Positions 1,030 through 61,239 of a stretch of 64,000 bases of DNA are shown here, piece by piece. Positions within the stretch are counted from its first letter, which is position 1. Every line of letters starts with the position of its first letter. Source of the stretch: Marsupella aquatica (Eukaryota; Plantae; Marchantiophyta); NCBI GenBank assembly GCA_973895155.1, contig OZ316895.1, positions 5,972,687-6,036,686 of the forward strand. The letters run 5' to 3'. Position numbers and translations under genes: made by a program. The notes below the pieces were generated by a model, which saw only the letters and a list, made by a program, of their open reading frames with translations, was not told the origin of the DNA and made no database searches.

Positions 1030-1410
1030 AAATAATGCATGCAAGTAAAACAACTAATGCATGCACCTAAAACAATTTGTGTATGCATGCACCTTGTGAC
1101 TTGCACATTTGCTCACCTTACATGAGCATATAAAACAACTAATGCATGCAAATAAAACAATTTGCATGCATTTTGTGGCTTGCACATTTGCTCACCTTGC
1201 ATGCACATAAAATAACTAATGCATGCAAATAAAATAATTTGTATGCATCTAAAACAATTTGTGCATGCACCTTATGGTTTGCACATTCGCTCACCTTGCA
1301 TGCACATAAAACGACTATTGTATGCAAATAAAACAATTTGCACATGCATCCAAACAATTTGTGCATGCATATTGTGATTTGCATAGTTGCTTACCTTGCA
1401 TGCACATACG
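1030..1410. repeat. Degenerate tandem repeat (~80-100 bp unit, ATGCATGCAAATAAAACAATTTG...GCTCACCTTGCATGCACATAAAA)
   Basis: About four recognisable copies of the GCACATTTGCTCACCTTGCATGCACATAAAA and ATGCAAATAAAACAATTTG blocks. Confidence 0.85.
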
Positions 1411-1519
1411 TAATAGTCAAATTATTTAGTTACCCCGTAACAAAATATAAATCTAACCTATATACTTACTAATATACTTAGTGATAATGATTTTATCATG
1501 AATAATTGAATTATCATGA

Positions 1520-2281
1520 CACCGGTTCCGCTTAGCTAGTGTTGTAGACGCCGAACTACCCTTCCGCTTCATCTCTTCAGTCCCTGATAACTCTCCAAGA
1601 ATGGTCTCCTTGATCGAAGCCAAAGTGTGACCCTTCAGCTCCCATACCGGCTACCCAGCGTTCTTAATCGCCTCTCAAATTCCAACGACTCGATCTCTCT
1701 GATCAGCAACTCGTCAAGCTCGACACTGGTTGGACTCCATAAGAATTTCTCGAGTACCTCCTCTATTCCCACAAAATCCGTCTTATAAATTCCCCATAAC
1801 CGCGCGAGCTCTGCCCTTTCCCTCAGTTGCTGCTCGTACCGGCTCGACGTATTTGTAAGTTGGTATGAGTTGTCGTGCTTCTTCAAGCAAACAGCCCCAA
1901 AACTTAGTCGCTTGATTCACCGTGGTCATTCCACCAAATAAAAAAGGAGCTTGAGCAATTTTCTACCCACCTCCCTTGATCGACCGACAGCTACTTTCGC
2001 CTCCCTAGGTCCCGATCGAACAAGAGAATGAGCGAATATATAGAGTGTTGGTCCCCTCCCCGCGAAGCCACCTCCTGATGGCTTGCATGATCAAGCCTGG
2101 ATTAGGTCATAACCCTAATCCCGCTTAATCGTGACCGTTGGATCCTACCCTATTGCAATCCTCCCCGTAACACGTTGTAATCAGCTTCGGTCTTTATTTC
2201 TACCTTATACTATCTGTCTAATCTTTATGTAGCCATTATTTTAGGCTTAACTAGTATCCATGATCCTGGCAAGGCATCACA
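1520..2281 (-). mobile_element. Truncated, diverged family-A LTR-like element (copy A0)
   Basis: Ends ...GGCATCACA at 2281, like 10700 and 34442. The minus strand encodes GMTTVNQATKFWGCL, ERAELARLW..FLWSPTS.ELDELL and ETILGELSGTEEMKRKG, homologous to the N-terminus of the 1210-aa ORF. Confidence 0.85.
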
Positions 2282-2282
2282 A

Positions 2283-2830
2283 TTACCCACTTTTGTGAGC
2301 CACTATGCTTCATATGCTTTCAACGCATGTGGTCCTGGACTTGTGTGGGATACAACTCTATGACAGTTAGTAGAGCCCACTACTGATGAAGAGAGCAGGC
2401 CATGGGATTCTCCATAGGCACTCGGGGGTTTCACTTCCACAAAAATGGCATATCACGTACGACGAAGGATAGGATCATTTTATTGGTTCTAAGGGAAGAC
2501 TTAAGAATTTTTGTAGAAGAACAATAGGGTCTTTTAAATTCAATTTTGAGACTTATAAGAACATTAGGGTCTTTTTAATCCATTTTTTAGAATATTCCAA
2601 GAATATTCCAACTTTATAGGGGTTAATTTTTTAAAAAAAATTCTTACATTTTAGGGGGTCCTAGGCCTCAAAACGTCGCAGGCGATGGGGAGGTCCCTAT
2701 ATAGTGAGACCCCCGAGCATAGGCACAACTGCTATTGCATCTGTGTTAGAGAGTTCACGCTGCCAAGTCCTTGGCCAAGCTTTGGATTTGAATTGTTGGA
2801 CTTGGATTATCAGCTTGGGAGTAGCAGAGC
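2283..2830 (+). pseudogene. C-terminal part of a DNMT3-like C5 cytosine methyltransferase domain inside a Gypsy pol
   Basis: Removing the MITE at 2421-2717 and one 1-bp frameshift gives LPTFVSHYASYAFNACGPGLVWDTTL*QLVEPTTDE(R)EQAMGFSIGTTAIASVLESSRCQVLGQALDLNCWTWII. This matches motif IX/X of DNMT3 (EMERVFGFPVHYT...ARQRLLGRSWSVP), with the same 18-residue GF-to-LG spacing. Confidence 0.7.
2421..2717. mobile_element. 297-bp MITE, hAT-like (8-bp TSD)
   Basis: 15-bp TIR CTCGGGGGTTTCACT / AGTGAGACCCCCGAG (1 mismatch). TSD CATAGGCA at 2413-2420 and 2718-2725. Confidence 0.92.
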
Positions 2831-3129
2831 AGTTTTGGATGCGCTCTGCTGGTGTTATAGATCGTCCATTGGTGAGCTTGCGGCCTACTGAGACAGTAGT
2901 GGCCACAATTGGGGGCGAGCAAATAGCCCATGGACCTATGGCAGGATTGACCAAGGTTGGACAAATTGTTGAGCAAAAAGGGACTGCTCTTGAAACTATT
3001 GCTATATAGCAATCATCAGCTATCTTTTCTACCCTACAAAAGGATATTAGGGATTTGGTGAAGAGTTGCGAGCCACAAATTGGTCCTAAGTTGATAGGGG
3101 AGGAGAGATATCGCATGCATCATTCCTAA

Positions 3130-4645
3130 AGAGTTACTGGAATTGTTTTGCATTTAGCATAAAGGATTTGGGAATTGAAGGGCCCTGGTATTCAAATTGA
3201 ATTGGCTAGTGATGCGCCAATCTTTGGTAGACCATACCGTTATAGTGACATAGAGAGAACTTTGATTCAGAGCAAAACTTAGGATTTGTTGGAGGTTGGT
3301 TTGGTGGAGATCTCATAAGGGGAGTATGCATCTGCCACAGTGATGCCAGTCAAAAAGGATGTGCATGGCAATTACACTAATAGGCGCATGTGTGGTGATT
3401 ACCAACCTATTAATCGTCATACAAAATATGATCGATATGCCATGCCTACACCTGAGGAGATCTTTGATGTTGTAGGGCATGCAAAGGGTTTTAGTTCATT
3501 GGACCTGAGGGCAGGGTACCATTAGCTTCCAATCAGACATTTTAACAGGTCCAAAACAACATTCTGGGGAATTGATTTGCATGGCAATGATTGTTTGTAT
3601 CAGTGGTTGTTCTTACCATTTGGGTTGAAGAATGCACCAGCTGAATTCCAGAGAGTCATGGATCAAATTCTTGCAAGTTTGGATTAAATTGTTAGATGTT
3701 ACATTGATGATATTTTGGTCTATTCTTCCACTGTGGAAGAACAGTAACAACACTTGCAGATTGTGTTGGAGAGATTGAGAGAATATGGGTTGAAACTCCA
3801 TCCTGGCAAGCGTAAGTTCTTCCAAGACCAGATTGAGTATTTGGGCCACCCAAGGGGATTGGGTGTGCAACAGAATAAGATGGAGGTCATTACACAGAAT
3901 CCTCATCCTACTGATGTGAGTAGAGTTCGTGCATTCTTGGGATTGACGAGCTACTACAGGAGGTACGTTAAAGGATTTAATTAGCCAGGTTGCTAAACCT
4001 TTAACCATACTCACTAAGTTGGATCATGAGTGGATTTGGGGTGATGATCAGGAGCATGCCTTTCAAGAGTTGAAAAAAAGATTGGCATCATCCCCTATTT
4101 TGAGAAGACCCATTTCAGGGAGACCATTTCAGCTACACACTGATTGGCGTGGAGTAGGACTTGGAGCAGTGCTTACTCAAAAGGATGATGAGGGGAATGA
4201 GTTTGTTGTGGCATATGCCAGTAGATCAAACAATTCAACATAAGCTAAATATAGCTCTTATGAGGGAAAGTGTTTGGCGGCAGTGTGGGCTATGGCATAC
4301 TTCCGTTGCTACTTATTTGGTAACCCTTTCACCTTGATAATTGATCATCTGCCTCTCAAGTGGTTAATGAAGTCTGACAAGCTTATTGGGAATCTTGCAC
4401 GATGGACATTGTTGTTATAGGAGTATGATTTCCAGGTTGTGGATAGGTCTGGAAAAGTGAACTTGGATGCAGATGGATTAAGCCACAATCCATGTACTAG
4501 TCAAGAGGATGAGACTGGAGCCAGATGGCATGATGAGTCAGATAAAGAGATGATGCTAGGATGACATACATCTGCCTTCCTTTATTGGGTTCTAGCATGC
4601 AGTGGATCTATGGACACTATTCATTGGATGAAGTAGATGATGAGT
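3130..4645 (+). pseudogene. Ty3/Gypsy pol remnant (reverse transcriptase + RNase H), multiple stops and frameshifts
   Basis: RRMCGDY, LDLRAGYH, LPFGLKNAPAEFQRVMD, CYIDDILVYS, FLGLTSYYRRYV, FQLHTDW, VVAYASR and DHLPLKWL motifs. Cut off at 4645 by a CACTA terminus before the integrase. Confidence 0.95.
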
Positions 4646-6031
4646 CACTAGAAGAAACCCACCCTTTCTGAGACCACAAAGAACGTGACTTGTCCGAGAC
4701 CTTCATGAAATAGCGACTCCAAAGTTGTTGGTGTCATGTTAGTCACACCTTCTTGACTGAGTTTTGGTGAAGTTTTGAGGAGTCATGTTTACAACTTTTA
4801 GGGAAGTTGTAACTATAACTCAGTTAAGGCAATTAGGTTGAAGTCATACAAGCGACTCTACATTAGCGTACAACTTATGAGAGCACAACATTTGAGCCCT
4901 TCAACCTTAAAGTATGAGATCTAACCCAATACATATGATTTTGGATACACCATATGTCATCCCACATAGATTTAATTATAGTCAGGTCATACCATTTTAA
5001 ACCATTAGTGAGTATTCCATCATTATTCCTGCCCCCATTTAGACACCATGAAGCGCGCCCCAGCCCCATTCAACTGCAAAAAGGATTTGTGAAAGCTTGC
5101 TAACCTAACTTAATGCTTTTTGTAGTCAATCTCTAATTTTTCTATCGCCGTCTTCTGGTCGTGCCAAAGGCGTGCTTAATTATCACCCAATTTCAGCCTC
5201 ACATATGTAGGTTGGGTTTACTTATTGCCATGCCCCGTAAACCTTCATGTTTCCCATGCCCCCTTCATATATGACAACCAATGCATGGTTCATGTTCAAT
5301 ATAAGTCCAACTTAAATGTTCAACTTAAATATATATGATCAGCTCTTCACTACCCCAACCCTAAAAAAATGTACTTTTCATAATGGTAATGTGGGGTCAT
5401 ATATACCTGACTATTTGGCCACATTTTCACCAAAGGGGGTGGTTCAAAGTTGTGACTAACCACTCACCCCACATATAACTATTGCGTAAGTCCTTTGGTT
5501 TCAAAGGAAAAAACTAATTAGGCAAATCATAGACTTTTGTGTCTCTTTTGTGAACTAATGTCTCCACTTCAATGTGCGTGAGTGTGCCTTTGGACACAAG
5601 TTTAGGGTGTGCGGGTTTTGTTTAACACGGCAGTAGAGTGCAAAGTTGAGTTGAATGTGCGCGGGAACTCAGCGGTGTGAGAAAAACTCGCTTGTCCATT
5701 GTGCTTACGGCCGGGGATATTCATCGTGCCTGAAGGTTTTGTGAAGGGTTTTGTGCGAGGAGCTTTACGGACTTCACTCCCGCTTGAGAGATGGTGATGG
5801 CAGGCAGGTGCAGCAGCAGCGCTTGATCAAGGTGCAACTTTATTGCGTAAGTCCCTGCTCGTCGTCTGGATATGTCATTGTTGTCGGGGTCTTCATGCTC
5901 ATCTGATTCGTCTTCTGCTCTTTGTGGCCGAGAGTCGACTACCTCACTCACTGACTTCTTGTCCAATGCATACCACAACCCTATTCCTTGTTCTCAGTCT
6001 GCGAGTTTGTGAGCTTTGGACCAGAGCAGAT

Positions 6032-9000
6032 TGTGGTGCGTCCCATGGCTCCCTAAACCCAAGAAACCCCCCAGCTCAAGCCGATTCCCGCAGGTTTCGT
6101 GCTTGGCGAGGCTGTTTCCGCGGCTTAGCGGCATGGGACGCTGCTAACCTTCTACTACTACTATTAACATTTTACACACATATACTGGACAGATCCTTCA
6201 TCGGGTCATGAGATACGTAGCCGGCCTAATATAGGCCTTCCCCTGTCTTCCCCTGTCTTCCCCTCCGTCTTGTTAGGTATGTTTGGATTCCGCCGCCGGA
6301 ATGATCCCCAATAGGCTTGGTTAAGCCGCTAAGACCTCTCTTAGCTCGACACATCCAACTCTCACTCCCCTGCTTACTTTCCTTCCTTCTGTTGATGTGG
6401 GCACTCTTCACACAAGTTAATGCGACACACAAATAGCAAAATGACTCATTCTGACTGAGTCATACCATGCACTTGCCATACAAACAGTACATCTCATACA
6501 CAAGTTCTGCGAACTAAGCCGTGAGGCCAACTCTATTCAGCTCTTAGGCATGAGGAAACATGAATATACACAAGGGTCACTGTATGACTAACCGAGAGCT
6601 TCTCGTACTACTTGATCCCAGCCCGGCTGGTGCAAACTAAAAACTTGCTAAAGAAGAGGCCCTGAGCTCCCCGCTGCCCAGGTACTTATCCTGGTAGTGG
6701 ATCCGCCATTCTTTGCATCGTAAGCCTAATCTACTTAACAGTAATCTACTTGCCCGAATCTACCTATGTACAGCAAGGCAGGAGCACAAGTGTTGCTCCT
6801 ACCAGTGGGACCGCAATCCCACTAAGCTAAGTGTCAGGGCCGCTCCTGGTTCTGATCCTAATCCTAAACGTGGAGATCCGCGCCCGCCCTGCCCACTCAC
6901 GCCTCCTCCCTCCACGTCCGCCCTCCCTAAAAGGAACGGCGCCCTTGCACCGTCACGACACCGGTGGTGGATCCTTAATGGACGCCCCCAGCGCTTCCTC
7001 CTCAGCCACTGCCGTAGGCTCATTCCCTGACAGATTACCTGCCCTTGACTGAGTCAACTCTCCATCGGCCTGACTGGGTCCACCATCGGCGTCGGCATCG
7101 GCTCGAGAATCGGTTACGGCCTCAGCCTCGGCTACGGTCTCCCCGGCCTGCTCAAGAGGCGGATCTGGAATACTGGCCTCCTTACTGAGTAGTTCGGCTT
7201 GGGCCGCACCATCCCTACCTGTGATCATAGCGGGATCTATTGCCGTATTCATGTCGGAGGATGGTGCTGGTTCTACCTCTTTGGTCACCACGGCTTGTGG
7301 AGTCGGATTACTCCTTGACCCTGAAGGTTTCCGCTTTTTCTTCTTTTCTGGTTCGGCAGCTGGTCCCTTCCCCTTCCCACTTACCTCCGGCACTGGTGCA
7401 GTTGGCGCGGCTTTTTCTTCGGCCAGTACCACTCTTGGTAACTTGGTTGCCCCAATTGGAGTTGGGCCTGATGAAGACAAGCACCTAAATACTGCGGCTT
7501 GTTTCTTCAGCCGCTCCGTTTGGTTGTCGGCCCGCCGCTGGAGGTTCTCCATCTTCCTCGTGATTTCCTCCAACTCCTCCTGGGTCTCATCCAGGTCCTT
7601 GCGTGCCTCCTCTAGTTCCTTCTGGGCTTCCTCCCGTTCTTGTTTCAAGGTAGTCCTCTCCTCCTGGGTTGCTTTTAGCTCCTTGTCGAGCTCTGCAATG
7701 ATGACAGACTCCATCTGGTTCATCTTGGCGTAAGTCTGTTCGAGCATCTCGTCCTTCTCCCTTAGGTCGGCCTTGAAGCTGGCCGTCAGGGACGCAAGCT
7801 CCTGCTGCAGCGCCATAATCCCTTGATAGGATTTCCCTAACTCGGCCTCCTGCTGCTCAAGGGCTCCGCAGATTTTCTCGAGCTCCCCTTTCAACGCCCA
7901 TTCCTTTCTTTGGGTCTCCGCCATGGCCCGGCTGTTGGCTGTTATGTGGGCCTCCTCTGTATTCTTCAGCTCTTGCTTCCACTTCTCCCTCTCTTTGATC
8001 GTGTCGGCCAACTCTTCCTGCGTCTGAGTCAGTTTATCCTTGATATTCTGATTATCAGCCTGCGCGGTGTCCAACTGCCCCTGCATGATGTTCAGCTCAT
8101 GTCGTTTAATCCGCAGTTCATCTTGGGCTTTCTTGGCCGCCCTTAGATCTTCAATCTCGGCTTCCATCCTCCTAAGCCGCCGAATGACCTCGTCCTTCTT
8201 GCTTCTCTCTAAAGCCACCGCTTCTTCTAATTGGTGCTTCTCCAACTGCTCCCTATGGAAAAAGGGTCCTACCTCCAACTCCTCTCCAAAGATGCCGAGC
8301 GCAAGTTCCCCACACATCTCACCATACTCCATGGCTCTATTCTTAGCGTAGGTGGAGTAAGTAAAAGTGATCGGCATCGCCCATCGCGGCCTCTGCTCCC
8401 AAGCCGTCCTGCGGATCTCTTCAATCGTGGCTAGAGGTTTGCTTCCTTTTTTGGCTAGCCGCCTGATGTCCTCCGGCCAATCTCCTCCTGGTAAATCCTT
8501 TTCCTTAGCCAGGGCGGCCTCCTCCTCCTGCTTGATTCGCTCCTGAAATTTCTGCACCGTCTGTTTTATGCCGTCGAAGCTCGGGGGAGCAACATCTGGT
8601 GGGGGAGACTCAGGGCTACTCTGCTGGTTGGGGTTCCCTCGCACTACCCTTGGAAGTGTGGGGACAAACCGGCCACAGGTCCTTACTCCTGGAACGTGAT
8701 GGTCCGACCCATAGCCGGAATTATCATGGCTGCAGTCCTCCACTGCCTCCTCTACCTCTTGGACGTCCGGCTTCTCCCTCTCCTCTTCGTCGGTAGGAGC
8801 TTCAGGCAATTCTGCCTCAGATTCGGAGCTTGAGGTTCCCACGTACATTCGAACACCTGGCTTGGATTCCGGCCTGATTCTCTCCTTGTCTCCAGCAAAG
8901 GGGTTTTCTCTTGTGAGCCGGTGTAGGCCTACCTCTGTAGTAGTGTCCTGCATTGTTGCCGTTGCCGTTGTTGTTGCCGATGCCGATTTCTTTTCTTTCT

Positions 9001-10700
9001 CCAGTAGTTTCAGCAGACTCTGCATGCCTGGTTGCTGCATCGGCAAGTCTTCCTTCCTGGGCCTAAACACCTGCTCGATCGTAGGACTAACAGGTGGTTG
9101 AGGCTTCTCAGCCAACGGCCTCGGCGTTGGAGCTTCCTCGGGTGCCCTTACCTGCAGGGGAAGTACCGGGGCAAAAGTCTGACCTCTGGCATACCGGCAC
9201 AACAGCGGCATGTGATAGCCAAGCCGCGACACGCTCCCCATGCCGATTACCTGCTGCTCCTCCTTTAAGATCTTCTTCAATTGGTTGAGGAGGTACCCGT
9301 TGTAGTCCCGGCTTGGGTCTGGCCTTTCTGCCAGATAGACCTGTGCCTTGCCGATCTCTGCCCTCGGCAAGTTACAATGCATGGTCACCCGCAAGAAGTC
9401 GATCATCTCTCCTATGTGCGGGTTGGTGCAGGTGTTCCGGAAGAAGCCATTCTTCGTTGATGGCCCGGGGAACGACCGGAACTCCTTGTCAGGCAAGGTC
9501 TTCCTGGTATCAACTTTGGTCTTATTGCCTATCGGCAAGCCAAACACTTCGGCAATTACCTTGGGAGTAAGATAGAAATCCTTCCCATATATCCTCGTGC
9601 AATTGGTCTCGGGTTCCCATGACCCCACGAATTCTAATAGGTCTGACTCCGGTACCTCCGGCTTCAGCCATGGTAATCTTACAAAGGCCTCCAAGCCGGA
9701 TCCGGCCATGAAGCCTTGGTACTTCTTGGTCTGCATGGCCGTAAAGCATGCATCCTCCTCCCGTGCAAAATGTAGTTGCACCTCCACCGGTAGGGTTGCC
9801 GCCCAGCCCTTCCAGGTGTCATCCCTGGTTGGAATGGCCTTGATGGGATCGACCTCCTCCTCTTCGGCTTCTCCCTGCCTCCTGCTCTGCTGCTCGGCTA
9901 GCTTCTTTGGTGCCGCCGACCTCGTTCTTTTTGCCGGGGTGGCTTCATCGTTGACGGCCCCCTTCCTCTTCATCTCTGCTGCCGTGGAGGTTTCTCCTAG
10001 CACCGTTGCCTGGGTCCACCTTTCCGTGCTACCCTTTAATTCCCAGTGTATGTCGTTGCATTTCTTGATGGCCTCTCGGATGCCGACGACGCTGTCTTTG
10101 CAAAACAGAAGATCGTCGAGTTGATTGGAAGTAGGCGTCCACAGGAACTCGTCCTTGATGAGTTTGCCTCCTAAGAAAGCCGTCTTCTGCAGCTCCCACA
10201 ATCGAGCGAGCTCCTGCCGTTCTCGAGCTGCCCTTTCTGACTCCTCGTCCTCGTAAGTCTTGATGTACTCAGTTGCCCGTTCGAACAGGCATCCCCAGAA
10301 ATGTGCCGCTTGATTGACGTTGCTCATACCCTCCTTAGGTCGATCGTCGGTATCTACTCTCTCCCCGAGTGCTTGCCTAAGCAGCTGACAGTAGTTGGCC
10401 TCCCGTAGTCGTCTGCCTAGTTCGTGCTCGCAAATGAGCCACCATCTCCTGCAAGCACTCCTTACCCCTCTCCTCCGCCGGTCCTTCTTCCCGTTGATCC
10501 TTCCTAGCCGCCGACGCTTAACGCGCCCTAACCCTAATCGGGTTTTCACCCTCAGCCTTACCTCCGGCCTCGGCCCGGGTTCCATGGTTGCCCCTAATTG
10601 TTTATATTTTCCTTGTTTTGTCCCTATACTAAGGTGTTCCTAGGGTGCCTTCCTGCTTTACCCACTTAACCGGCCGAGTGATTCCTGTCTAGGCATCACA
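6032..10700 (-). mobile_element. Family-A 4669-bp solo-LTR-like element (copy A1, intact)
   Basis: Termini TGTGGTGC...GCATCACA (imperfect inverted repeat). Perfect 5-bp TSD CAGAT at 6027-6031 and 10701-10705. No internal direct repeats and no RT/IN motifs. Confidence 0.95.
6953..10585 (-). CDS. 1210-aa element-encoded protein: PMD/plant-transposon-like domain, low-complexity linker, long coiled coil, basic NLS-like patch
   Basis: Uninterrupted ORF. The motif LLEFVGSWEPETN...FYLTPKVIAEVFGLP resembles the Plant Mobile Domain core (ERWxPETHTF...ITLxDVxxLxGLP). About 250 aa of heptad-rich E/K/Q/L sequence follow, then EKKKKRK. Synonymous-biased divergence from copy A2. Confidence 0.9.
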   Translation of the reverse strand: MEPGPRPEVRLRVKTRLGLGRVKRRRLGRINGKKDRRRRGVRSACRRWWLICEHELGRRLREANYCQLLRQALGERVDTDDRPKEGMSNVNQAAHFWGCLFERATEYIKTYEDEESERAARERQELARLWELQKTAFLGGKLIKDEFLWTPTSNQLDDLLFCKDSVVGIREAIKKCNDIHWELKGSTERWTQATVLGETSTAAEMKRKGAVNDEATPAKRTRSAAPKKLAEQQSRRQGEAEEEEVDPIKAIPTRDDTWKGWAATLPVEVQLHFAREEDACFTAMQTKKYQGFMAGSGLEAFVRLPWLKPEVPESDLLEFVGSWEPETNCTRIYGKDFYLTPKVIAEVFGLPIGNKTKVDTRKTLPDKEFRSFPGPSTKNGFFRNTCTNPHIGEMIDFLRVTMHCNLPRAEIGKAQVYLAERPDPSRDYNGYLLNQLKKILKEEQQVIGMGSVSRLGYHMPLLCRYARGQTFAPVLPLQVRAPEEAPTPRPLAEKPQPPVSPTIEQVFRPRKEDLPMQQPGMQSLLKLLEKEKKSASATTTATATMQDTTTEVGLHRLTRENPFAGDKERIRPESKPGVRMYVGTSSSESEAELPEAPTDEEEREKPDVQEVEEAVEDCSHDNSGYGSDHHVPGVRTCGRFVPTLPRVVRGNPNQQSSPESPPPDVAPPSFDGIKQTVQKFQERIKQEEEAALAKEKDLPGGDWPEDIRRLAKKGSKPLATIEEIRRTAWEQRPRWAMPITFTYSTYAKNRAMEYGEMCGELALGIFGEELEVGPFFHREQLEKHQLEEAVALERSKKDEVIRRLRRMEAEIEDLRAAKKAQDELRIKRHELNIMQGQLDTAQADNQNIKDKLTQTQEELADTIKEREKWKQELKNTEEAHITANSRAMAETQRKEWALKGELEKICGALEQQEAELGKSYQGIMALQQELASLTASFKADLREKDEMLEQTYAKMNQMESVIIAELDKELKATQEERTTLKQEREEAQKELEEARKDLDETQEELEEITRKMENLQRRADNQTERLKKQAAVFRCLSSSGPTPIGATKLPRVVLAEEKAAPTAPVPEVSGKGKGPAAEPEKKKKRKPSGSRSNPTPQAVVTKEVEPAPSSDMNTAIDPAMITGRDGAAQAELLSKEASIPDPPLEQAGETVAEAEAVTDSRADADADGGPSQADGELTQSRAGNLSGNEPTAVAEEEALGASIKDPPPVS

Positions 10701-13346
10701 CAGATGATCGGAAGCCTTGGACGAGAGACGCAGACTCCAATATCTAGCTTGAAAACAAACGGTGATTGATTTTATCAGGTGAGAAGATCGAGAGCTCTAG
10801 AGATGGCGATGGCGTGCGGGCGTAGCAGCAGCGCTTGATCAAGGTTTGTCTTCTGCTGCTAGTACTGGTGCGATTCTTTCTACTCTCGGCTTTTCTTGCA
10901 GAAACAACAGCTCGGATCTGAGGGCTATTGGCAGTGACACTGGTGCGCCAGTCCCCGCGGAGCTTATGGGATTGGGAGGTTTTGTTAGTTTCATTCAGTA
11001 GCAGAGTGGCAGGGTTGAAGGTCGTAGCGGAGAGCGGGTAGCGGAGTGGCAAGGTTTAGGGAGCTGTGACCTTCATTTGTTGTAAATGTTGGTAAGATGC
11101 CGTGACTTGATTGGTGTTGTCAAAGTTTCTTTTTACTTAGGTTCCTTCAAAGTTTCAGCAACGCAAATTTTTCTGAAAATGACTGTGACTGTGGGCTACA
11201 GCTGGTGAGGTGGAAGGGATTGCAAACGCGTTACTAATCTACAACCTTGGGCACGCTATCAACATATATCCAATCATCGAGCGCAAAGTCGATTAAACCC
11301 TCACAAGGTAAGACCCACTCATTCCTTTTCTTATAAGCTCTTATTGGGCAAACATCGCTCTCTGCGTACACCTTGCCAGCCAGGCAAGACCCATGATACT
11401 GTTCGACTACCACAGACAGTCCCAAGTGGCCAAGTGGTGCTTCTGAATTTCTGTTGTTGAGTTGCGCCTTCCCAGATGCCGTAGTCACTACTGCTCCTTA
11501 GCGTGCACCTACATAGGTGCTGACCCAATGAAGAGAGGGATTGAGCCTTGGTACTGTACTCCTACACAGTCTGAGCTCGGGTGCCTATTCTTCATTTCCT
11601 GTTGAATGTTCCATTTTTTTAGCGGATTGCTGCTCTGCCCTTTTGCCATGGGTCGTCGGTCTGCCGGATGCTATCAGCAGATTAAGAACAAGTCATATCC
11701 CAAGTCCCGGTGTTGCAGTGGTGTCCCCGACCCTAAGATGCCAGCCAAAATCATCTTTCTTGTTTCCTGCTACTGCTGATGTATGTATGTTCTCCCGTAT
11801 TTTTGCTTACTGATTGGTCTCTCCACACTTCTTGCTTGACATGACTGTTTCGCTCCTCCCTGTATGAGAACATGCCTTGTGCCCCGTGCTCTGGCGGTGG
11901 GGTGGGGGGGGGTAAACAGACAACCTTAAGGTCCACTAAATTTATAGGAACCGTGCAATCGTTCAGCTGATTTTAGCAGCAAGATCCCTTGCTTTCCCCT
12001 GTTTTTGCTAAGATCCCTCCCCACTAATCAATGCATCCTTTACTTTTCTCGGTGGCCCGTGCACCTGCCTTCCTACTTTCGTTCTTATGGACTTTCCTTA
12101 GGTTTTCTTTCACCTGATTTTGGACTTTTTGCTCCAGTGGAATCTGTCTTGACAACTTGTGTTTGTTCTAATTGTTAATATCTCAAGAGGGTCGTCAACT
12201 AAGCTGATAGGAGTCAAAGCTAACTACAAGCTAGCAAATACAGAGAATGCTCCCAAGTCGAGTCAGGAGGAAGTTACTAAAACTAGACCTTCACAACTCT
12301 CGAAACTGGAAAGTGAAATTCAGCCTGAGACATGCAGTTGAAGGCCACAAGGATAACTATATGGCCACACTGTCCCTCATTCAAGTTCAAAGTCCTCTTC
12401 AGATTGTCTGAACTCCTATCTGAACTCCTGAACTGGATGAAGTCCTGTCTGAATGTGAAGTTCAAATTGGCAATCTCAAATGGCAATTTCTGAACTCTTG
12501 TCTGAACTTCATCCACCCTTCTAAATTGGGATTTGTGCTACGTGTATAGACTCCACATTGTTGCTCCTCCCTTTCGGGCCAGCCCTCCTTGTGAAACGTA
12601 GGAGCACGATCATGGCACTTACACATAGTCTGACATTCAAAAAATGCTACTTCTCAGCAGCATGTTTCGAGCAGTTTGCCTGTGTGTTGAGCCTAATTAT
12701 TTGTTTATTGCTTTAGTAACATGCATGGCCAATTGGTTTCTCTTCATGTAAAGGCAAGATTTTGAAACTTACTACTTGAATTGGTGGTTTGAATTTAGTT
12801 AAGTGTTGAGAAATTAGCATTCACACTAACTATTTTTCTTTTGTGATTGAGTTCTCTTTGCTATTGAATGTATTGAATAATTATTTCATCACAGAAATTT
12901 TCAGAACAAACACGGAAGCACCAGGGGGCTGAGGATTGGATATTGAGGCTGAAGACATTGAGGTAATAAACTGGGTGTGGTTCGGGTGACAATGTTAGCA
13001 ACTGATGCTTCTTCAAGGGAACTTCCCATGTGCAGTTTATCCACACATGATTGACTTTGGTTCTTGCTGTTTTGCTTTTGGTGTACTCTTGAGTTTGGTG
13101 TCACTCTATCCTTTCCTGTAGCCTCGAAATAGGACGATTGTGTTTGGCTAAGATGCTAGATTGTGGCTTGTCTTCTTGCTTCCAGCTTGTGTATATTCAA
13201 TTAATAGAAGTTGGGAACGAAGTGATAATTGAATTTCCTTATATTAAGCATCTTGACCTAGAAACTCAATACATAAACTCCAGGAGTCCCTCGGGACATA
13301 AAATGAGCCAAATTGTTTCAAAATTGGGAACCTGCACCCGCACTAC

Positions 13347-13687
13347 TCAAACAAATGTGTTGGGCTTGGTGGCCTTGTAAGTCGTCTTTAGCTTTCGTGA
13401 TGGAGGTTGAATCTTGCGGTACGTCAAGGGGAACTTGATCTTTGAATCATGGAACTGCTTGGTACTTTCTCGCTTGCATAGAGAGACAGGGACTGTCGTA
13501 GTCTTGATGATCTGGATGCAAGGGAACCGAAGTCTATGACAAGAAGTCATATCATCATACATCTGTTCTACAGCTCCGTTCAACGTGGTATCATGATATT
13601 CCTTGTACATGTTGTGATAACCTGTACGACTCTGATACCTCACCCAGATACCGAAGTTCTTAATTGTGGTGGGCTTTTTTCGAAGAT
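13347..13687 (-). pseudogene. RPL18a: Captured terminal exon of 60S ribosomal protein L18a (eL20)
   Basis: [39 protein letters not shown]...IQIIKT...[18 protein letters not shown]...[12 protein letters not shown]. Preceded by an acceptor CAG (13690-13688) and a 1-bp frameshift. No upstream exons recognised. Confidence 0.92.
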
Positions 13688-14227
13688 CTGGTAGACACAT
13701 TATTCAGCATTTGCTAACTTCGAAACTAGAAGGGTAACACATTAAACAACAAAGAAACTCACAACATCCTTCTTTGGTCCTTCAGAGTCTGTACTTTGAT
13801 TATGAATTTTGACTGAGTTTCTGTTTACTGAAAGAATGTGACTGTGTAAGAGTTCCATTTGGCAGTGGATTGGTTGAAAGCACTTCATGCTAGTGTGTTG
13901 TCCATAGCTCTTCAACCAGCTTTCGTCTTCCTTGTCTTTCACCACTTACGATGACATCAATTCAGCTAAGACCATAGAAGGTTCCAAAGCATCTAACTTG
14001 TCAAATCGCATTCTGTTACATCAAGGACTAAGGTGTTGGGTATCAAAGGAGACAGCACAACAAACACGCTGAAAAGACTTCAGGACTGGGTTCAACAAGG
14101 TAGTGAAGGTGCTTACAACCATAGTAAGTATGCATTCTGTATCTTTCTCTGTTGATGCATAATGGGAGTTGTAGTTGGCAAGAGTTCCATAGGGCCAAAT
14201 ATGAACAGATCCAGAAGTATGTGTATG

Positions 14228-15687: not shown

Positions 15688-16456
15688 AGGACCACTTGTC
15701 ACACCGCATGCATAGACCAGATACCATTGACCTATAGCTTAACACTCTGACTTCAACACAGAGGATATTTACTTAAAATTTTGATGTATGAGCAATTTTG
15801 GGTCCAGGGTTTAGGGTCAACAGTACATAACTTATCCTATTAAGCTTGCACTAAGTAAAATATCCTAATTTAAGAGGCTAGCAAACTCGCTTAAAAGTCT
15901 CTATTGAAAGACAGCTTTCATGACTGCTTTAACCTGGTGAACATTGCAACGTTCAATGAATTAATGGGCCATGTGATAACCTGTAAAATGTGATTTATGC
16001 CTCACTTATTGTCTCAGCCACTATCATAGCCTATTTAGGATGTATACATTTCAACTCTTATGACACTGCTTCATACCAATCCTCTTTGAAGAATGATTGT
16101 TTTACATGTCACGACTATTGTATGTGATTCAAATGCATGAAATGTTGTTGCAGATCTCATTTGGTGAATCATAGCCACAATTAAAATTGAGGTGTTGGTG
16201 GAGCAATTGTATTAGGGAATCAGTTTTGTGTGTTGGCTCAACATACCAAAAGTATGTTTGCTCTGCATCCTTGTGTGGCCATTCCAATTGATTGCAGTAG
16301 CAAATGCCTTTGTACCTTAAATGCTAAATATATTTTACTTTCTGTGCAGTTTGCTAAATTGTAGAGTCTATCTAAATACCTTTGTACCTTAAATGCTAAA
16401 TATATATATTACTTTCTGTGCAGTCTGCTAAATCGTAGAGTCTATCTCATGTGCAG

Positions 16457-17137
16457 GCATGGCACGACCTAAAATTCAAGCCAAAAAGTGTGTGACAGAG
16501 GTGAGGAACACAAGTGTACTTGGGGCAGATGCTACTAACTTCTCTGCAAGTCAGATTTTCCAGAAGGCAGCTCATTGTTGTGCCATTTGTGACGATGGTG
16601 GGGGCCTGGTCATTTGTGAGGGCCCTTGCATGAGGCATTTCCACCTCAACCTGGAGTCTGACCTTGCTGCAGAAAACAATTGTCCAGGGGTGGGCCTCCC
16701 GTCAACACACCAGGGAGACTGGATGTGCACTGATTGTTTGGAGAAGCAGGCTAAGTGTGCACAGTGTGGAAAGTTGGGGTCCTATGAGGGCTTTGTTGAT
16801 GCCCCAACAATTGTTAGGAAATGTCCAGACCGTTTTTGTGTGAGATTTTTCTGTTTTGAGTGTTTGCCTTCTCATGCCACAGCTTGCCCACTTCATAGGT
16901 GCAAGGCATGTGGTGAGCATGATCATGAGTACTGGACTGACATAGTCCACTGTGCTAGGTGTCCCACCATGTGGCACTATCATTGCCTGAAAGATTGTCA
17001 AGCAGAGGGTTATGCTTGTGACAGAAATCTATGATCACTCTGCACATGGTGTTGATCGATGGATATTTTATTGTCATCGCCATGCCATTGATCCTACCTC
17101 GCGCACTCCTATGAGAGATCACATATCTTGGCTGTGA
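16457..17137 (+). pseudogene. EDM2-like composite PHD-finger module (one frameshift near 17008)
   Basis: CAICDDGGGLVICEGPCMRHFH...C.GVG...WMCTDC...CAQCGKLGS...CPLHRCKAC...CARCPTMWHYHCL, then in the shifted frame WIFYCHRHAIDPTSRTPMRDHISW. Collinear with the EDM2 PHD region and its IYC.HEID...TP.RDH tail. Acceptor TGTGCAG ends at 16456. Confidence 0.85.
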
Positions 17138-17794
17138 AGCTGAACATTGTACATGCATAGTGCACCTGATGTGGATGTACAATTTTTTGAGATTGAAGAG
17201 ATTCCAATTTTGAAAAGGAGTTGGGTAGGCGAGTTTATATAGGCAGCACTTATCTTGTGCTCTGGCGTCAGTGGCTGGGTACATGCCTATAAAAACTTAT
17301 CCTTACAAGCCTTCTTGGAAGTATTTAGGTTGAGTGGTCATTTTCATAAACACTTTCATCAGACTGCTAAATTAAAATAGGACTTCTAAGTTGTAAGCGT
17401 ATAAATTATCAGGCATGCAATTAATCAAATTGCCCTATAAGTTTGTCATTGAACGTATCCTCCTTTACAACAAAATATGTATGTGCCATGACAAGTTGGT
17501 TGCACTTCATTTCACCTTCGATATGGATTTTGTAGTATATATTCAAACAATGTCCTGCATCCGTGCAGGTGCCTAGTACGTATTGTTCACATATCCCTTG
17601 TACCTATCAAAATTTGACCTGAGCACCAGTGGGCCAGATCAACTCAAAAAGCAGGAATTTTGTTGTCCTTGTATTGTCAGGTGAACCCATTCTTCCAAAA
17701 TTCACTATCATCACGTAGGGTGTGTGTACATGGAGCCTGGGAAACGTAGAAAGTGTGACCACCCAACAGTGTTTATAGGGGTCAGAGCCATTTA

Positions 17795-18761
17795 CGGTAC
17801 ATGAAGCTGCTCAAAGGTCACGTGAGAACATATTACAAACCTGAAGCAAGCATGGCTAAAGGTTACATCAAGGATGAGACTCTGGGATTTATGACCGAAT
17901 ACATAGCACAATATGAGCATGTGAAGACCAGGGTGTGGAATTCTGATGAGGAGGAAGGGGTGATAGGTGAAGTACTGGAAGGGGCTGCAACCACAAAGAA
18001 CCTGACCACATCTATGAGGGACTTGGCACATGACTTTGTATTGCACAACACTGTGGTGATGGAACCCTGGATACAATGAGTACATACATGTGCTATAATC
18101 CAGTTCATGAGCTGAAATGTTGTGTGTGTGATTTTCTCCTTCAGCCTGTTCATATTTACCCAAGCTAATGCTGTGTGGTTGTTTGTTTAGGGAGTATGAG
18201 TCATTGAAGGCGGCCCATCCCACTGTAGGAACAACTTTTCCAGGTTTCATGGAGTGGATTAGAGTGGCAATTAGAGAGCATCACGAGACCCACCCAGACA
18301 TGGATGCAGACGTTTACCTACTGTCTAATGCCCCTAGCCTGAAAGTGAAGACTTACAAATGGATGAGAGCATATGGGAATCACTTTCGAGTGAAGGATGG
18401 TGATAGTGCCTATAGGGTGACAAATGACTGTGGGCTCATCACTGTATTTGAGCAACAGAGCCACAATCACGACAGGGCCTGGATGGAGATGGGATATGTG
18501 GGAGAATTAGTTGATATATGGGCTCTGGACTATGGGGCGGTGTCCAAACCTGTGATTCTTATGAAAGGTTCATGGGTGCGGCAGGATTGGCTTGGTAATA
18601 GGGCTACCATGAAGAGAGACAATGACGGTTTCTTGCTGGCCAATTTCAGAGGGAAATTGCTCGAATGGTCTGAGCCATTTGTGTTTCCCAGTCAGGTAGA
18701 GCAAGCTTTCTTCTTGGATGTGGAACACTCCCCAGGTTGGCGTGTAGTGTATCATAAATAG
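17795..18761 (+). pseudogene. CACTA transposase TnpD/TNP2 C-terminal half (DUF4218/DUF4216-like); catalytic N-terminal part absent
   Basis: MKLLKGHVR...PEASMAKGYIKDETLGF, YKWMRAYGNHFRV, GYVGELVDIWALDYG and EPFVFPSQVEQAFF...GWRVV. Intron at ~18080-18190. Confidence 0.9.
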
Positions 18762-19747
18762 GCCAGGCAACGTCGGATGGAAGGATCAAACCTTGAGTTT
18801 CATTTACACTCTCATAGTGCCTTTGATCGTCGGCGTTCAGACCAAGTGCCTGTAGTTCATGATAGCGGGGACTTCATTGACAAGGGTAGATGCATTTGCT
18901 GAAGGAGGCGAATTCAGAGATGCAGATACCAATAGTGTGCCTGTGCCATGAGTAATGTGAATTGTTTGCATGGACAATAGTGAGGGGATGTGTAATAAAG
19001 TAATTCTGAAGCAACACAGATATATGGATGGATGCCTGGTGATTGTGGTTGCATTGTATTATACGGGGTGACCATAGATGACATGTTTTTGTGGTCCAGT
19101 AGGATGGAACAGAGTGACACAGAGATGTGTGAGTATGAAAGGAAAGCTATGGAACAACGAGCATATGTGAAAGCCAAAATTGCAGAACTGGATCTGGAAA
19201 AGGATGTGGCTGAATTGTAAGGGAACAATTCTCAACTACACCCCTCCGCTGAGTTTGTGTGACATGAATAGTTCAATGTGGCACTGAAATTGTGACTGTA
19301 TTCTCATATTGGAATGTCGTAGAGCAGCAGGTTTTTCAAAGAAACAAAAGGAGTACGCAAGAAGGGTGACCATCACGATATCTGGGCGTGTGCGTCGAAG
19401 TGACAGGTTGAGCAAGAAGGTCGTACCTACAATGGCAGAATGTGGAGATGACATGGATGCTACGCAAGTGGGTGCAGACACTAGACAAGAAGATACAGAT
19501 GATGAGTATTTTCCAGAGGAAATGGATGAGGATGGGGGTTATGAAGATGAATAAATTGCAGAGCAGCCCCAAAAGAAACAGGTAAGTAGTTTTCCCAACA
19601 AGCTAGGTTTAGAGTTAAAAACTCTTGTTGAGAGGTTTCATATGTTCAGTACTACACCCTATGTACCTTGCTTAGTTCCTGACATTGTAGTTGGTGATGT
19701 GATGCAGCGTCCTACCAGTTCTATTTTGCCTGCAAAGCCTGTGCATG

Positions 19748-22700
19748 TGTGATGCCTAGCCAGGAATCACTGGGCTAGTTTAAGGGGAAAAGGGAAGTGT
19801 ACCCTAGAAACACCTTAGTATAGTTACATAAATAAGGAAAATATAAACAATTAAGGGTGACTATGGAACCCGAGCCGAGGCCGGAAGTAAGGACGCCAGG
19901 GGAGAGAATACGATTAGGGTTAGGGCACGCTAAGTGCCGGCGGCTAGGGGTAACCAACGGGAGGGAGAACCTTAGGAGGAGAGGGGTAAGGACCGCTCGC
20001 GAGGAGTAGTGGCTCATTTTCAAGCACGAACTGGGTAGGCGACTACGGGCGGCCAACTACTGTCAACTGCTTAGGCAAGCGCTCAGGGTGGGAACAGATA
20101 CCGACTATCAACTCGAGAAGGGTATGAGCAACGTCAATCAAGCGGCACATTTTTGGGGATGCCTGTTCGAACGGGCAACTGAGTACATTGGGACTTACGA
20201 GGACGAAGAATCGGAGAGAGCAGCTCAAGAACGGCAGGAGCTCGCCCGATTGTGGGAGCTGCAGAAAGCTGCTTTCTTAGGAGGAGAACTCATCAAGGCT
20301 GAATTCCTGTGGACGCCTACTGGCAACGAGCTAGACGACCTGCTGTTTTGCGAAGATAGAGTCATCGGCATCCGAGAAGCCATCAAACACTGCAATGACA
20401 TACACTGGGAGTTGAAGGGTAGCACGGAGGGGTGGACAAAGGCAACTGTGCTAGGAGAGACATCCACGGGAGCCAAGATGAAGAGGAAGGGGAACAACAA
20501 CGAAGAGGCCACCCCGGCAAAAAGAACGAGGTCGGCGGCACCAAAGAAGCCAGCAGAACAGCAAAGCAGGAGGCAGAGAGAAGCCGAGGAGGAGGAGGTC
20601 GACCCCATCAATGCCATTCCAACAAATGATGACACCTGGAAAGGCTGGGCGGCGACCCTACCGGAGGAAGTGCAATTACACTTTGCACGGGAGGAGGATG
20701 CATGCTTTACAGCTATGCAGACCAAGAAGTACCAAGGCCTCATGGCCGGATCCGGCTTGGAAGCCTTCGTAAGATTACCATGGCTGAAGCCGGAGGTGCC
20801 GGACTCAGACTTGTTAGAATTCGTGGGATCATGGGAGTCCGAGACCAATTCCACAAGGGTGTATGGGAAGGATTTCTATCTCACTCCCCGGGTGATTGCT
20901 GAAGTGTTTGGCTTGCCGATGGGTAATAAGACCAAGGTTGATACCAGGAAGACCTTACCTGACAAGGAGTTTCGGTCATTCCCAGGACCATCAACAAAGA
21001 ATGGCTTCTTCCGGAACACCTGCACCAACCCGCACATCGGAGAGATGATCGATTTCTTGCGGGTAACCATGCACTGTAACTTGCCGAGGGCAGAGATCGG
21101 CAAGGCTCAGGTCTACCTGGCAGAAAGGCCAGACCCAAGCCGGGATTACAACGGGTACCTCCTCAACCAACTGAAGAAGATCTTGAAGGAGGAACAGCAG
21201 GTGATCGGCGTGGGAAGCGTGTCCCGGCTTGGCTATCACATGCCGCTGTTGTGCCGGTATGCCAGAAGTCAAATCTTTGCCCCAGTACTTCCTCTATCGG
21301 CAAGAGCACCGGAGGAGGTCCCGGAGCAGAGGCCGGCAACGGAGAAACCCAACCCGCCCGACAGTCCTACAATCGAGCAGGTGTTTAGGCCAAGGACGGA
21401 GGACTTGCCGATGCAGCAACCAAGCATGCAAAATCTGCTGAAATTGCTGGAGAAGGAAAAGAGAACGGCAACGGCAACGGCACCAATGCAGGACATTGCT
21501 CCAGAGGTGGGCCTAAGCCGGCTTACAAGGGAAAACCCCTTTACTAGGGTCAAGGAGAGAAGGAGGCCGGAACACGAGCCGAGAGTCCGGATGTATGTCA
21601 GAGCCTCAAGTCCCGAAGCCGAGGAGAAGCAGGCCGTAGCTCCCGGCCACGACAAGGAGAACAAGAGGTCAACAAGGAAGCCGGAGGAGGAACCAAGACC
21701 GGTGAGAGGTGAAGCCGTGTTCACAACAAAACCAAGAGAACAACGGGAGAAGCTGGTAGTCCAAGCCGAGGAGGAGGCGGTAGAGGACTACAGCAATGAT
21801 GACTCCGGCTACAGGTCGGATCATCATGTTCCAGGAGTAAGGACCTGTGGCCGGTTCATCCCCACGCTCCCAAGAGTAGTTCGAGGAGACCCGAGCCAGC
21901 AGAGCAGCCCCGAGTCTCCCCCACCAGATGTCGCTCCCTCGAGCTTTGACGGCATAAAACAAACGGCGCAGGAATTTCAGGAGCGAATCAGGGAGGAAGA
22001 GGAGGCAGCCCTGGCTAGGGAAAAGGATTTACCAGGAGGAGAATGGCCAAAGGACATCAAGCGGCTTGCAGAAAAATGAAGCATCCCTCCAGCCACAATA
22101 GAAGAGATCCGCAAGGCAGCTTGGGAGCACAGGCCGCGGTGGATGATGCCGATGACTTCTACTTCCTCCACCTATGCTAAAAATAGAGCCATGGAGTACG
22201 GGGAAATGTGTGGAGAGCTGGCGCTCAGCATCTTTGGGGAGGAGTTGGAGCAAGGACCCTTTTTTCAGAGGGAGATGTTGGAGAAGCGCCAATTAGAAGA
22301 AGCGGTGGCTTTGGAAAGAAGCAAGAAGGATGAGGTCATCCGTCGGCTTAGGGCAAGGGAAGCCGAAATCAAAGACCTGAGGGCGACCAAGAAAGCCCAA
22401 GATGAGCTGCGGATTAAGCGGCATGAGCTAAATATCATGCAGGGCCAATTGGATACCGCACAGTCTGATAATCAGATTATCGAGAATAAATTGACTCGAA
22501 CCCAAGAAGAGTTGGCCGATGCGATCAAGGAGCGGGAGAAGTGGAAGCGAGAGCTGAGGGATGCAGAGGAGGCCCACATAACAGCCAACAACCAGGCCAG
22601 GGCGGAGACCCAGAGAAGGGAAAGGGCATTGAAGGGGGAGCTCGAGGTTATCCGCGGAGCCCTTGAGAAGAAGGAGGCCGAGTTAGGGAAATCCTATCAA

Positions 22701-24485
22701 GGGATTATTGCGCTGAAGCAGGAGCTTGCGTCCCTGACGGCCAGCTTCAAGGCCGACCTGCGTGAGAAGGACAATATGCTCGATCAGACTTACGCCAAGA
22801 TGAACCAGATGGAGTCTGTCATCATTGCAGAGCTCGACAAGGAGTTAAGAGCGACCCGGGAGGAGAGAGCTGCATTTAAACAAGAATTGGTGGAAGCCCA
22901 AAAGGAGCTGGAGGAGGCGCGCAAGGACCTGGACGAAGTGCAGGAAGAGTTGGAGGAAAGCACGCGGAAGCTAGAGAACTTACAACGACGAGCCGACAAC
23001 CAAACGAAGCGGCTGAAGAAACAAGCCGCAGTATTTAAGTGCTTGGCTTCATCAGGGCCAACTCAAATTGAGGCCACTAAGTTACCAGGAGTGGTACTGG
23101 CCGAAGGACAAGCCGCGCTATTTGCACTAGTGCCGGAAGTAAGTGGGAAGGGGAAGGGGCCAGCTGCCGAACCAGAAAAGAAGAAGAAGCGGAAACCTTC
23201 AGGGTCAGGGAGTAATACGGCCCCATAGGCCGTGGTGACCAAGGAGGTAAACCCAACACCGACCTCAGGCAGGGTTACGGCAGAGGATCCAACTACCCTA
23301 GAAGAAGGGGATGACAAAGCCGAGGCCAGGATACTCGGTAATGAAGCCGAGGTACCCAATCTGCCACTTGAGTGTGCAGGGGAGGCCGTAGCCGTGGCTG
23401 AGGCCGTAGCCGAGGCTGATGTTGAAGCCGATGTCGTTGCCGGGGGTGGACCCAATCAGGCCGATGGAGAGTTGACTCAGTCAAGGGCAGATAATTTGTC
23501 AGAGAACGAACCTACGGCAGTGGCTGAGGTGGAAGCGTTGGGCCGGGGCATCCACTGAGGAACAGACACCGCTGCCATGACGGTGGTGGAGGGCCGCTCC
23601 TTTCAAGGAGGGCGGACGTGGAGGGAGGAGGCATGAGTGGGCAGGGCGGGCTCAGATCTCTAAGTTTAGGATTAGGATCAGGACCAGGAGGCGGCCTTGA
23701 CACTTAGCTTAGTGGGATTGCGGTTCCACTGGTAAGAGAAACACTTGTACTCCTGCCTCGCTGTACATAGGTAGATTCAGTTAGGTAGATTAAAGCTTAC
23801 GCTGCAAGGAATTAGGCGGATCCACTACCAGGATAAGTACCTGGGCAACGGGGAGCTCAGGGCCTCTTCTTTAGCAAGTTTTTAGTTGCACCAGCCGGGC
23901 TGGGATCAAGTAGTAAGAGAAGCTCTCGGTTAGTCATACAGTGACCCTTGTGTATATTCATGTTTCCTCATGCCTAAGAGCTGAATAGAGTTGGCCTCAC
24001 GGCTTAGTTCGTAGAGCTTGTGTATGAGATGTATTGTTTGTATGGCAAGTGCATGGTATGACTCAGTCAGAAGGAGTCATTTTGCTATTTGTGTGTCGCA
24101 TTAACTTGTGTGAAGAGTGCCCACATCAACTAATAGAGGAAGGAAAGTAAGCAAGGGAGTGAGAGTTGGATGTGTCGAGCTGAGAGAGGTCTTAGCGGCT
24201 TAACCAAGCCTATTGGGGATCATTCCGGCGGCAAAATCCAAATATACCTAACAAGACGGAGGGGAAGACAAGGGAAGGCCTAGATTAGGTCGGCTACGTA
24301 TCTCATGACCCGATGAAGGATCTGTCCAGTATATGTGTGTAAAATGTTAATAGTAGTAGTAGAAGGAGGTTAGCAGCGTCCCATGCCACTAAGCCGCGGA
24401 AACGCCCTCGCCAAGCGCAGAATCCGCGGGAATCGGCTTGTGAAGGGGGGTTTCTGGGGTTTAGGGAGCCATGGGACGCACCACA
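19748..24485 (+). mobile_element. Family-A element, copy A2 (4738 bp, opposite orientation to A1, diverged subfamily)
   Basis: TGTGATGCC...GCACCACA with perfect 5-bp TSD GCATG at 19743-19747 and 24486-24490. Confidence 0.95.
19863..23558 (+). pseudogene. Family-A ORF, copy A2 (broken by several stop codons)
   Basis: Fragments 20088-22079, 22143-23228 and 23232-23558 are collinear with the 1210-aa protein. Confidence 0.9.
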
Positions 24486-24618
24486 GCATGCACCATACCA
24501 GCAGGGGGGCTGACCTCTGATCAAGGTTGGCGAGGTGGTAGTAGTGGTAGATCCCAGGCTGGTGCCCAATACTATGGCAGGGGGCAAGCTCTAGGTTATG
24601 CCCGTGGTAGAGGTAGAG

Positions 24619-42300: not shown

Positions 42301-42581
42301 CGTACTGGATCCTAGTCCGCTTTTAAAACGGCCCACAAAATAGTGTCTCCCATGAAAGTTCTGGGGCGATCTAACTCAGGAAGTGTGTTTGAAGCAGCTA
42401 GCATCAGCAGACGCCCAAGAATCTTGTAGATGTCGAGATCTAGGGATGAGTAGCCAAGACTGAAAGGACGAAGGGGAGGGAGACGACCAACGGAGAAGAT
42501 TGGAGAAGTGGGAGATAAACAGAGGAGGAGCATGACGAAGAAAGTTATATAGCTTCTTAAGCGTGGGGTGCATCTTCGAGG

Positions 42582-48289: not shown

Positions 48290-48800
48290 AATTTATTTAA
48301 ATTTTTATTTTTCATTAGATTTCATTAGGTCTCTTATCATTAGATTATATTTTTTAGTTTAATATTTTATTTTTTAATAATATAAGATATTTTAAAGTAT
48401 CTAATAATAAATATTTTTTATAACAAAAATTTATATTTAAATACATATATCATATATAATTTATTAAAAATTTTAATTATATTATTAATAATTATATTTA
48501 GATTATATATTAAATTTTAATATATTAAATATATTATTTGTTTTATATATGTTTTATTTAGATATATTATGATATATTATAAATTAAATATTTATAATAT
48601 TATTAAAATTAAATACATTTAATCCATTTAATTTTAGTATATAATAAATTTTAATTATTATCATATATTATAATTAGATGAATTATATGTATTTAATTTT
48701 TTAAAAATTTATTATATTAATATATTATAATTTTAATATTTGATAATATATTATAATAATTTTAACATAAATTATATTAATATTTATTATATTTAATCAT
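48290..48800. repeat. Extremely AT-rich low-complexity tract
   Basis: Almost exclusively A/T (TATTA/ATAAT runs). Confidence 0.9.
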
Positions 48801-61205: not shown

Positions 61206-61239
61206 CCTTCAGTCCTGAAATTCAGCCATCTAAATTATT

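Follow-up and report, generated by a model that had tools for sequence, protein, structure and literature searches.

A repeated 4.7-kb insertion in the liverwort Marsupella aquatica, probably the solo LTR of a giant retrotransposon, carries a conserved gene

The unit and its gene

The window analyzed here, 64,000 nt of Marsupella aquatica contig OZ316895.1 (positions are counted from its first letter), contains a repeated unit whose ends resemble those of a long terminal repeat (LTR) and which is largely filled by a single gene. Copy 1, described first, is 4,669 bp long, starts with TGTGGTGC and ends with GCATCACA. Its features are as follows, with ratios of nonsynonymous to synonymous substitution rates (dN/dS) taken from the comparison of copy 1 with copy 2.

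6032 to 10700, no strand assigned: copy 1, a complete unit with TG...CA ends, a terminal inverted repeat matching at 7/8 positions, and depth steps at both ends in sequencing runs X1, X2 and X4
6027 to 6031, + strand: left 5-bp target duplication, CAGAT; an X1 contig runs across the empty site, from 6028 to 10704
10701 to 10705, + strand: right 5-bp target duplication, CAGAT, from flank comparison
6032 to 6952, no strand assigned: non-coding end, 920 bp, whose first ~800 nt are 93-97% alike between subfamilies, against 71-94% in the gene
6953 to 10585, - strand: open frame of 1,210 codons that fills 78% of the unit, its first ATG lying 115 bp from the end
10328 to 10700, - strand: probable promoter and 5' leader, predicted from motifs
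9836 to 10327, - strand: conserved N-terminal part, aa 87-250, of no family; dN/dS 0.16; present in homologues P0006, P0009 and P0010 and in copy 4
9176 to 9835, - strand: conserved globular core, aa ~251-470, a candidate PMD/DUF1985-like domain; dN/dS 0.08 for codons 251-470
7466 to 8245, - strand: long predicted coiled coil, aa ~780-1040, from composition and heptad score; dN/dS 0.22 for codons 721-1040

The TG...CA termini with their short imperfect inverted repeat are retained across copies 1-4, and duplications of 4-6 bp lie directly at both ends in two of the three full copies, the exception being the recombinant copy 3. Exact 5-mer pairs at both insertions (CAGAT and GCATG) would be expected by chance at about 1e-6. 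Long terminal inverted repeats are absent from the unit, where only 7/8 nt match, as are any internal direct repeat longer than 28 nt, a second TG/CA boundary, a second LTR, and the pair of LTRs around a non-coding interior that marks terminal-repeat retrotransposons in miniature (TRIM) or large retrotransposon derivatives (LARD). Pfam found no gag, reverse transcriptase (RT) or integrase (IN) in the unit and no DDE transposase or integrase on its sole long open reading frame (ORF), and an Rfam scan of 1400-11500 returned no match. The unit is a repeated, mobile, exact-ended insertion with a 5-bp duplication, found in recombining subfamilies. A preliminary description of this DNA had proposed TG...CA ends with an 8-bp imperfect inverted repeat, duplications of CAGAT and GCATG, no internal LTRs, gag, RT or IN, and a self-contained unit with an integrase-type signature; the ends, both flank pairs, the searches above and the depth and junctions of read contigs bear this out. 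The flanks of copy 1 (5782-6031 and 10701-10950) are themselves repeats, with X1 and X2 depths in the thousands and a 47-52-nt direct repeat on both sides.

The true start of the gene is probably Met87, at 10327 and 374 nt from the end, giving a protein of 1,124 aa that occupies 72% of the unit. Codons 1-86 are likely leader, because their dN/dS is 0.74 (p 0.37), copy 4 retains the ATG of Met87 while its first ATG is absent, homologues P0009 and P0023 start at the Met87 position, and copies 1-3 all have a TATAAA at 95 nt from the end, just ~20 nt ahead of the first ATG. TATAAA and the telo-box-like ATTAGGGTT, which copies 1, 2 and 4 retain at 171-174 nt from the end, are presumably promoter motifs. 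A possible RNA run, X11, holds only scattered short pieces of the unit.

For codons 87-1040, dN/dS between copies 1 and 2 is 0.20 (p 7e-49), and across four coding regions it spans 0.08-0.26; constraint is also weak at the far end (0.71, p 0.16, for codons 1041-1210). Four of the control frames gave 1.06-2.04. The mirrored antisense frame has a low ratio (0.24) because third positions are shared, but it holds 26 stop codons against 1 in the gene frame. The frame has stops in two of the three full copies (copies 2 and 3). The gene has evolved under purifying selection, which supports the functional gene of the preliminary description, and the dN/dS near 1 that would have spoken against it was not observed; its frame, 115-bp offset and ~78% share also hold, although the length of 1210 aa is probably 86 codons too great.

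A low-complexity linker joins the core to the coiled coil, and a basic KKKKRK stretch follows the latter at aa 1081. The gene has no introns, and its homologues are unnamed or hypothetical proteins, none from a known host family; the sole homologue with a named source is from a liverwort. P0005 was excluded from alignments as a tandem-repeat artefact. Pfam gave three hits on the protein, all sub-threshold and all coiled-coil, and PDB sequence searches gave nothing under E 0.3. Word-index protein searches with residues 85-480 (near lengths) and 240-480 (shorter lengths) returned nothing, nor did one with alignment A2, an insensitive search that did not recover the alignment's own members. Related loci were found neither in viral contigs with the window protein or P0020 (P0026 gave one confirmed stretch and no locus), nor in metagenome contigs by alignment or terminus pattern, nor in prokaryote genomes. 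Five matches to the terminus pattern were rejected as chance: L001-L002 share only 14-29 nt with the unit, and L003-L005 are T4-like phage contigs.

Further copies and sequencing runs

The two insertions of the preliminary description were both confirmed, and a third full copy and a truncated fourth were added.

19748 to 24485, + strand: copy 2, complete, of another subfamily, 4,738 bp, with GCATG on both sides; frame stops at codons 48, 714 and 1097
29780 to 34442, - strand: copy 3, complete but recombinant, with no matching duplication; stops at codons 124 and 835
~1519 to 2281, - strand: copy 4, an old truncated relative with the same terminus (16-17/18 nt) and the start of the same gene

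Copy 2 lies on the strand opposite to copy 1, is 85-86% identical to it, and interrupts a CACTA-like coding region whose frame runs on across the reconstructed empty site. This CACTA-like element (~16430-29100, + strand) has an upstream frame with NSD-like PHD fingers (16459-17031) and pieces of DUF4218, DUF4216 and Transposase_24, all below the Pfam cut-off. Copy 3 is 95.8% identical overall. Over its left ~200 nt and 698 nt of adjoining flank it repeats the end of copy 2 in inverted orientation, with 5 differences in 924 nt; the remainder is 99% like copy 1, barring a ~770-nt block at 73-94%. The recent inverted duplication concerned (24260-25183 and 29082-30005) puts the copy 2 end onto copy 3, and copies of the unit appear to seed local rearrangements. 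The far end of copy 3 breaks the gag-like frame of another element (34443-35776, - strand), which carries zinc-knuckle-like motifs and was labelled by eye, with no Pfam hit. This frame was rejected as the interior of copy 3 itself, since copy 3 interrupts it and the junction is pyrimidine-rich. Copies 1 and 3 stand in direct orientation 23.7 kb apart; copy 1, however, has its own duplication.

Copy 4 shares 42% protein identity with aa 86-223, and the distance from gene to terminus stays constant (353-377 nt) down to this divergence. A 10-nt word just outside its end (2283-2292) recurs on the same strand 33-42 nt inside the end of copy 1 (10659-10668), a match seen by eye and probably due to chance. 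About 380 nt beyond copy 4 lies a degenerate Gypsy-type pol fragment (~2665-4620, + strand) with Pfam hits to RT and RNase H and no integrase seen; the interval between the two holds neither gag nor a primer site, though an interior once present there may have been deleted.

Words of the unit occur in 14 of 16 sequencing runs, and half or more of them in 6, which carry four organism labels; small shares of the unit in a run are no evidence of habitat. Summed contig depth in X1 and X2, which is no measure of copy number, falls from 1.7e5-1.3e6 within the unit to 1.3e3-5.1e3 in the outermost bins of the flanks, with a step at both termini. In X4, X6, X8 and X12, contigs depart from the unit precisely at 6032 and 10700, and the X1 contig that joins 6028 to 10704 represents either the empty site or a paralogous one. 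In X2, three joints run from the interior of the unit to 6032 and are read as self-nested insertions. A large number of the X1, X2 and X6 joints coincide with GATC (5 positions checked) and were left unused because such joints resemble proximity-ligation libraries; the joints at 6032 and from 6028 to 10704 are not at GATC. No run contig spans the whole unit, and contigs of a high-copy repeat would seldom cross its ends.

Solo LTR or stand-alone element

On balance, the unit is more likely than not a solo LTR left by a giant retrotransposon of the Ty3/Gypsy type, the LTR itself carrying a conserved accessory gene whose product is tentatively PMD/VANC-like. The parent would consist of two such LTRs around gag-pol, the gene thus being present twice per element as the preliminary description proposed. 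Reverse transcription would rebuild the LTRs, integrase would make the TG...CA junction and the 5-bp duplication, and recombination between such long LTRs would often remove the interior, so that most copies would be solos; with a promoter in the first ~370 nt, a solo could still express the gene. No route is known that copies a unit with neither terminal direct repeats nor long inverted repeats. This gap places the solo LTR ahead of a stand-alone element, as do two points from the literature (citations here and below refer to parts of the papers): long LTRs favour solo formation (PMC7497039), and LTRs of 5-6.5 kb are known in plants (PMC6317226; PMC6431247). The assignment to Gypsy is made because such accessory domains are known there, with no pol sequence behind it.

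Several results weigh against this interpretation. Neither a pair of units around gag-pol nor a junction to an internal region was seen in the window or the run contigs. Of eight flanks that could be read individually (five at the 10700 end and three at the 6032 end), none is shared, and none has a convincing primer site or polypurine tract, those of copy 4, X8 and X12 being judged by eye. The near-misses were a flank with TGG at offset 4, inside the gag frame of another element, and one with 10/15 purines that carries the duplication. Neither the X8 and X12 flanks nor the six window flanks of copies 1-3 yielded a self-priming match. Pooled X4 junction contigs, four per end, agree at 0.55 and 0.52, against 0.53 (0.48-0.58) at random and an expected 0.63 if two of four were shared. 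Lastly, searches of open-literature listings showed no plant element with a full gene inside its LTR. The flank test has low power: at 2.6 solos per intact element, the probability of no internal end is 0.23 among 6 and 0.09 among 10, and at 10 solos per intact element 0.59 and 0.42. The junction sample therefore argues mildly against a family with many intact elements and is compatible with a solo-rich one.

The nature of the product meets similar objections. The preliminary description had guessed at PMD or Transposase_32, and there is no Pfam match to PMD (PF10536), DUF1985 or Transposase_32 (PF20167) on the whole protein, its isolated domains or 26 homologues; Foldseek against PDB and viral models likewise gave nothing. 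What remains of the guess is an Atlas lead on one homologue toward PMD/Transposase_32, Atlas scores below 0.9 being leads only, and the top match of a fold search with the core, VANC21 (PDB 9lnk), which is weak and below the tool's trust level but extends over most of the domain. The core model used was mediocre (pLDDT 57, pTM 0.59), and a single-sequence fold was unusable (pLDDT 30). These leads tentatively suggest a PMD/VANC-like DNA-binding regulator. By analogy with VANC, which acts for VANDAL, it is possible, though doubtful, that the globular domain binds DNA motifs of the family, that the coiled coil oligomerises, and that the protein counters host silencing in trans. VANC targets are motif arrays (PMC5735166), and no such short-motif array is evident in the two non-coding ends.

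A rather unlikely alternative is a complete stand-alone element, in which one regulatory gene sits between minimal att-like ends and is moved in trans as DNA by a Gypsy- or Ginger-type integrase-like enzyme, with no two-LTR parent. The readable junctions, all different, and the random agreement of the pooled ones fit this view, as do the presence of both ends in all three young window copies, the linkage of gene and terminus over deep divergence, a best fold lead that comes from DNA transposons, and the TG...CA ends of Ginger DNA transposons (PMC6839031). Against it, the unit lacks terminal direct repeats for strand transfer and a known means of copying, its inverted repeat is only 8 bp compared with 100-150 bp in GingerRoot, Ginger duplications are 4 or 6 bp (PMC6839031), and the few junctions sampled are compatible with a solo-rich LTR family. 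In its most specific form, which we consider quite improbable, this would be a new kind of plant element: a 4.7-kb cassette, high-copy in several related species and without a two-LTR parent, whose bare integrase ends enclose a single VANC/PMD-like anti-silencing gene and which acts in trans on the transposons that supply its integrase.

There is a slim chance that the unit is the LTR of a non-autonomous, LARD-like parent with no gag-pol in its interior (LARDs are described in PMC6431247), or that a formerly short LTR took up an internal extra ORF between its two halves and was then amplified. Extra ORFs normally adjoin the 3' LTR (PMC7264820), and the ~800 nt nearest the 6032 end far exceed the gene in similarity between subfamilies, as a core LTR part would; the missing internal direct repeat and second TG/CA boundary speak against both versions, and the layout is no recent rearrangement because it is kept in the relative at 42% protein identity. 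That the long frame is a non-functional by-product, as its stops and the low mirrored ratio might hint, or a captured host gene in an ordinary repeat is very improbable and largely refuted by the dN/dS comparison and the stop-ridden mirrored frame; the lack of introns and of homologues in any known host family also speaks against it.

Solo-LTR formation is the host's main way to delete retrotransposon genes, and a kilobase-scale accessory gene inside the LTR would escape it. If the unit is indeed a solo LTR, the gene and its own probable promoter would outlast each deletion. Such a layout is known for retroviral sag and was not found for plant retrotransposons in the open-literature searches. 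What the extra ORFs of plant retrotransposons do has yet to be settled (PMC7264820). The gene described here is intact, under selection and high-copy, and with its possible VANC-like fold it offers a direct test of the anti-silencing idea; that fold would thereby be extended to a retroelement of a seed-free plant. If no parent exists, the unit would be a new type of integrase-moved element. Such units would probably escape LTR finders and be annotated as host coiled-coil genes.

Elsewhere in the window, two divergent, intact, intron-less frames encode a DUF7869 protein (59749-61221, - strand; E 3e-44) and a NIF-like phosphatase (61436-62512, + strand; E 4e-13), possibly one more transposon. 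An intron-less ribosomal protein L18a-like frame (13350-13703, - strand) is probably a retrocopy. An NAD-dependent epimerase/RmlD-like host gene is represented by exon-like pieces at 42561-44700 (+ strand; labelled by eye, with a weak Pfam hit), and 48001-49000 is a palindromic tandem region that is very AT-rich (14% GC).

Comparison with known systems

In layout the unit recalls the sag gene of mouse mammary tumour virus (MMTV)-like betaretroviruses, which is much smaller than the gene described here. The sag gene, in U3, is a protein gene within an LTR and survives mostly in solo LTRs (490/527 contigs); it belongs to an animal retrovirus and encodes a superantigen, and the likeness is one of layout, with no sequence relation implied (PMC4667437).

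Among plant elements, the Ogre/Tat/Athila (OTA) group of Ty3/Gypsy shares with the unit LTRs of up to 5-6.5 kb, 4-5-bp duplications, and extra ORFs with PMD, Athila ORF-1 or Transposase_28 domains (PMC6317226; PMC6431247). However, the OTA extra ORFs lie in the interior, up- or downstream of gag-pol, whereas the gene here fills 72-78% of the LTR-like unit. Retrosat2, RIRE3 and RIRE8 likewise have LTRs of more than 3 kb, many solos (2.6 per intact element) and an extra ORF0, but this ORF is interior and upstream of gag-pol (PMC3485330). Retand and Grande carry a conserved accessory gene with its own promoter, a predicted nuclear or DNA-binding role and SMC-like coiled coils; unlike the unit, they have LTRs of 315-1,194 bp, an antisense ORF between pol and the 3' LTR and a TRP28 domain, and occur in seed plants only (PMC11963269; PMC7264820). 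In general, the extra ORFs of plant elements are described as interior, placed either next to gag or between pol and the 3' LTR (PMC7264820; PMC3485330; PMC6317226; PMC11963269). The Tat, Athila and Phygy lineages occur in liverworts, and the parts of these sources consulted do not mention a gene-in-LTR layout (PMC13468544; PMC12885004).

Ginger elements share the TG...CA ends, and GingerRoot is found in bryophytes and lycophytes; these have long inverted repeats, 4- or 6-bp duplications and a DDE transposase, none of which is present in the unit (PMC6839031). The closest structural lead for the protein, VANC21 of VANDAL21 together with the PMD proteins MAIN and MAIL1, is a top but weak match over most of the core (PDB 9lnk; PMC5735166; PMC13547354). 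This group further shares with the gene product a conserved domain accompanied by variable regions and a coiled coil, and it too is transposon-encoded.

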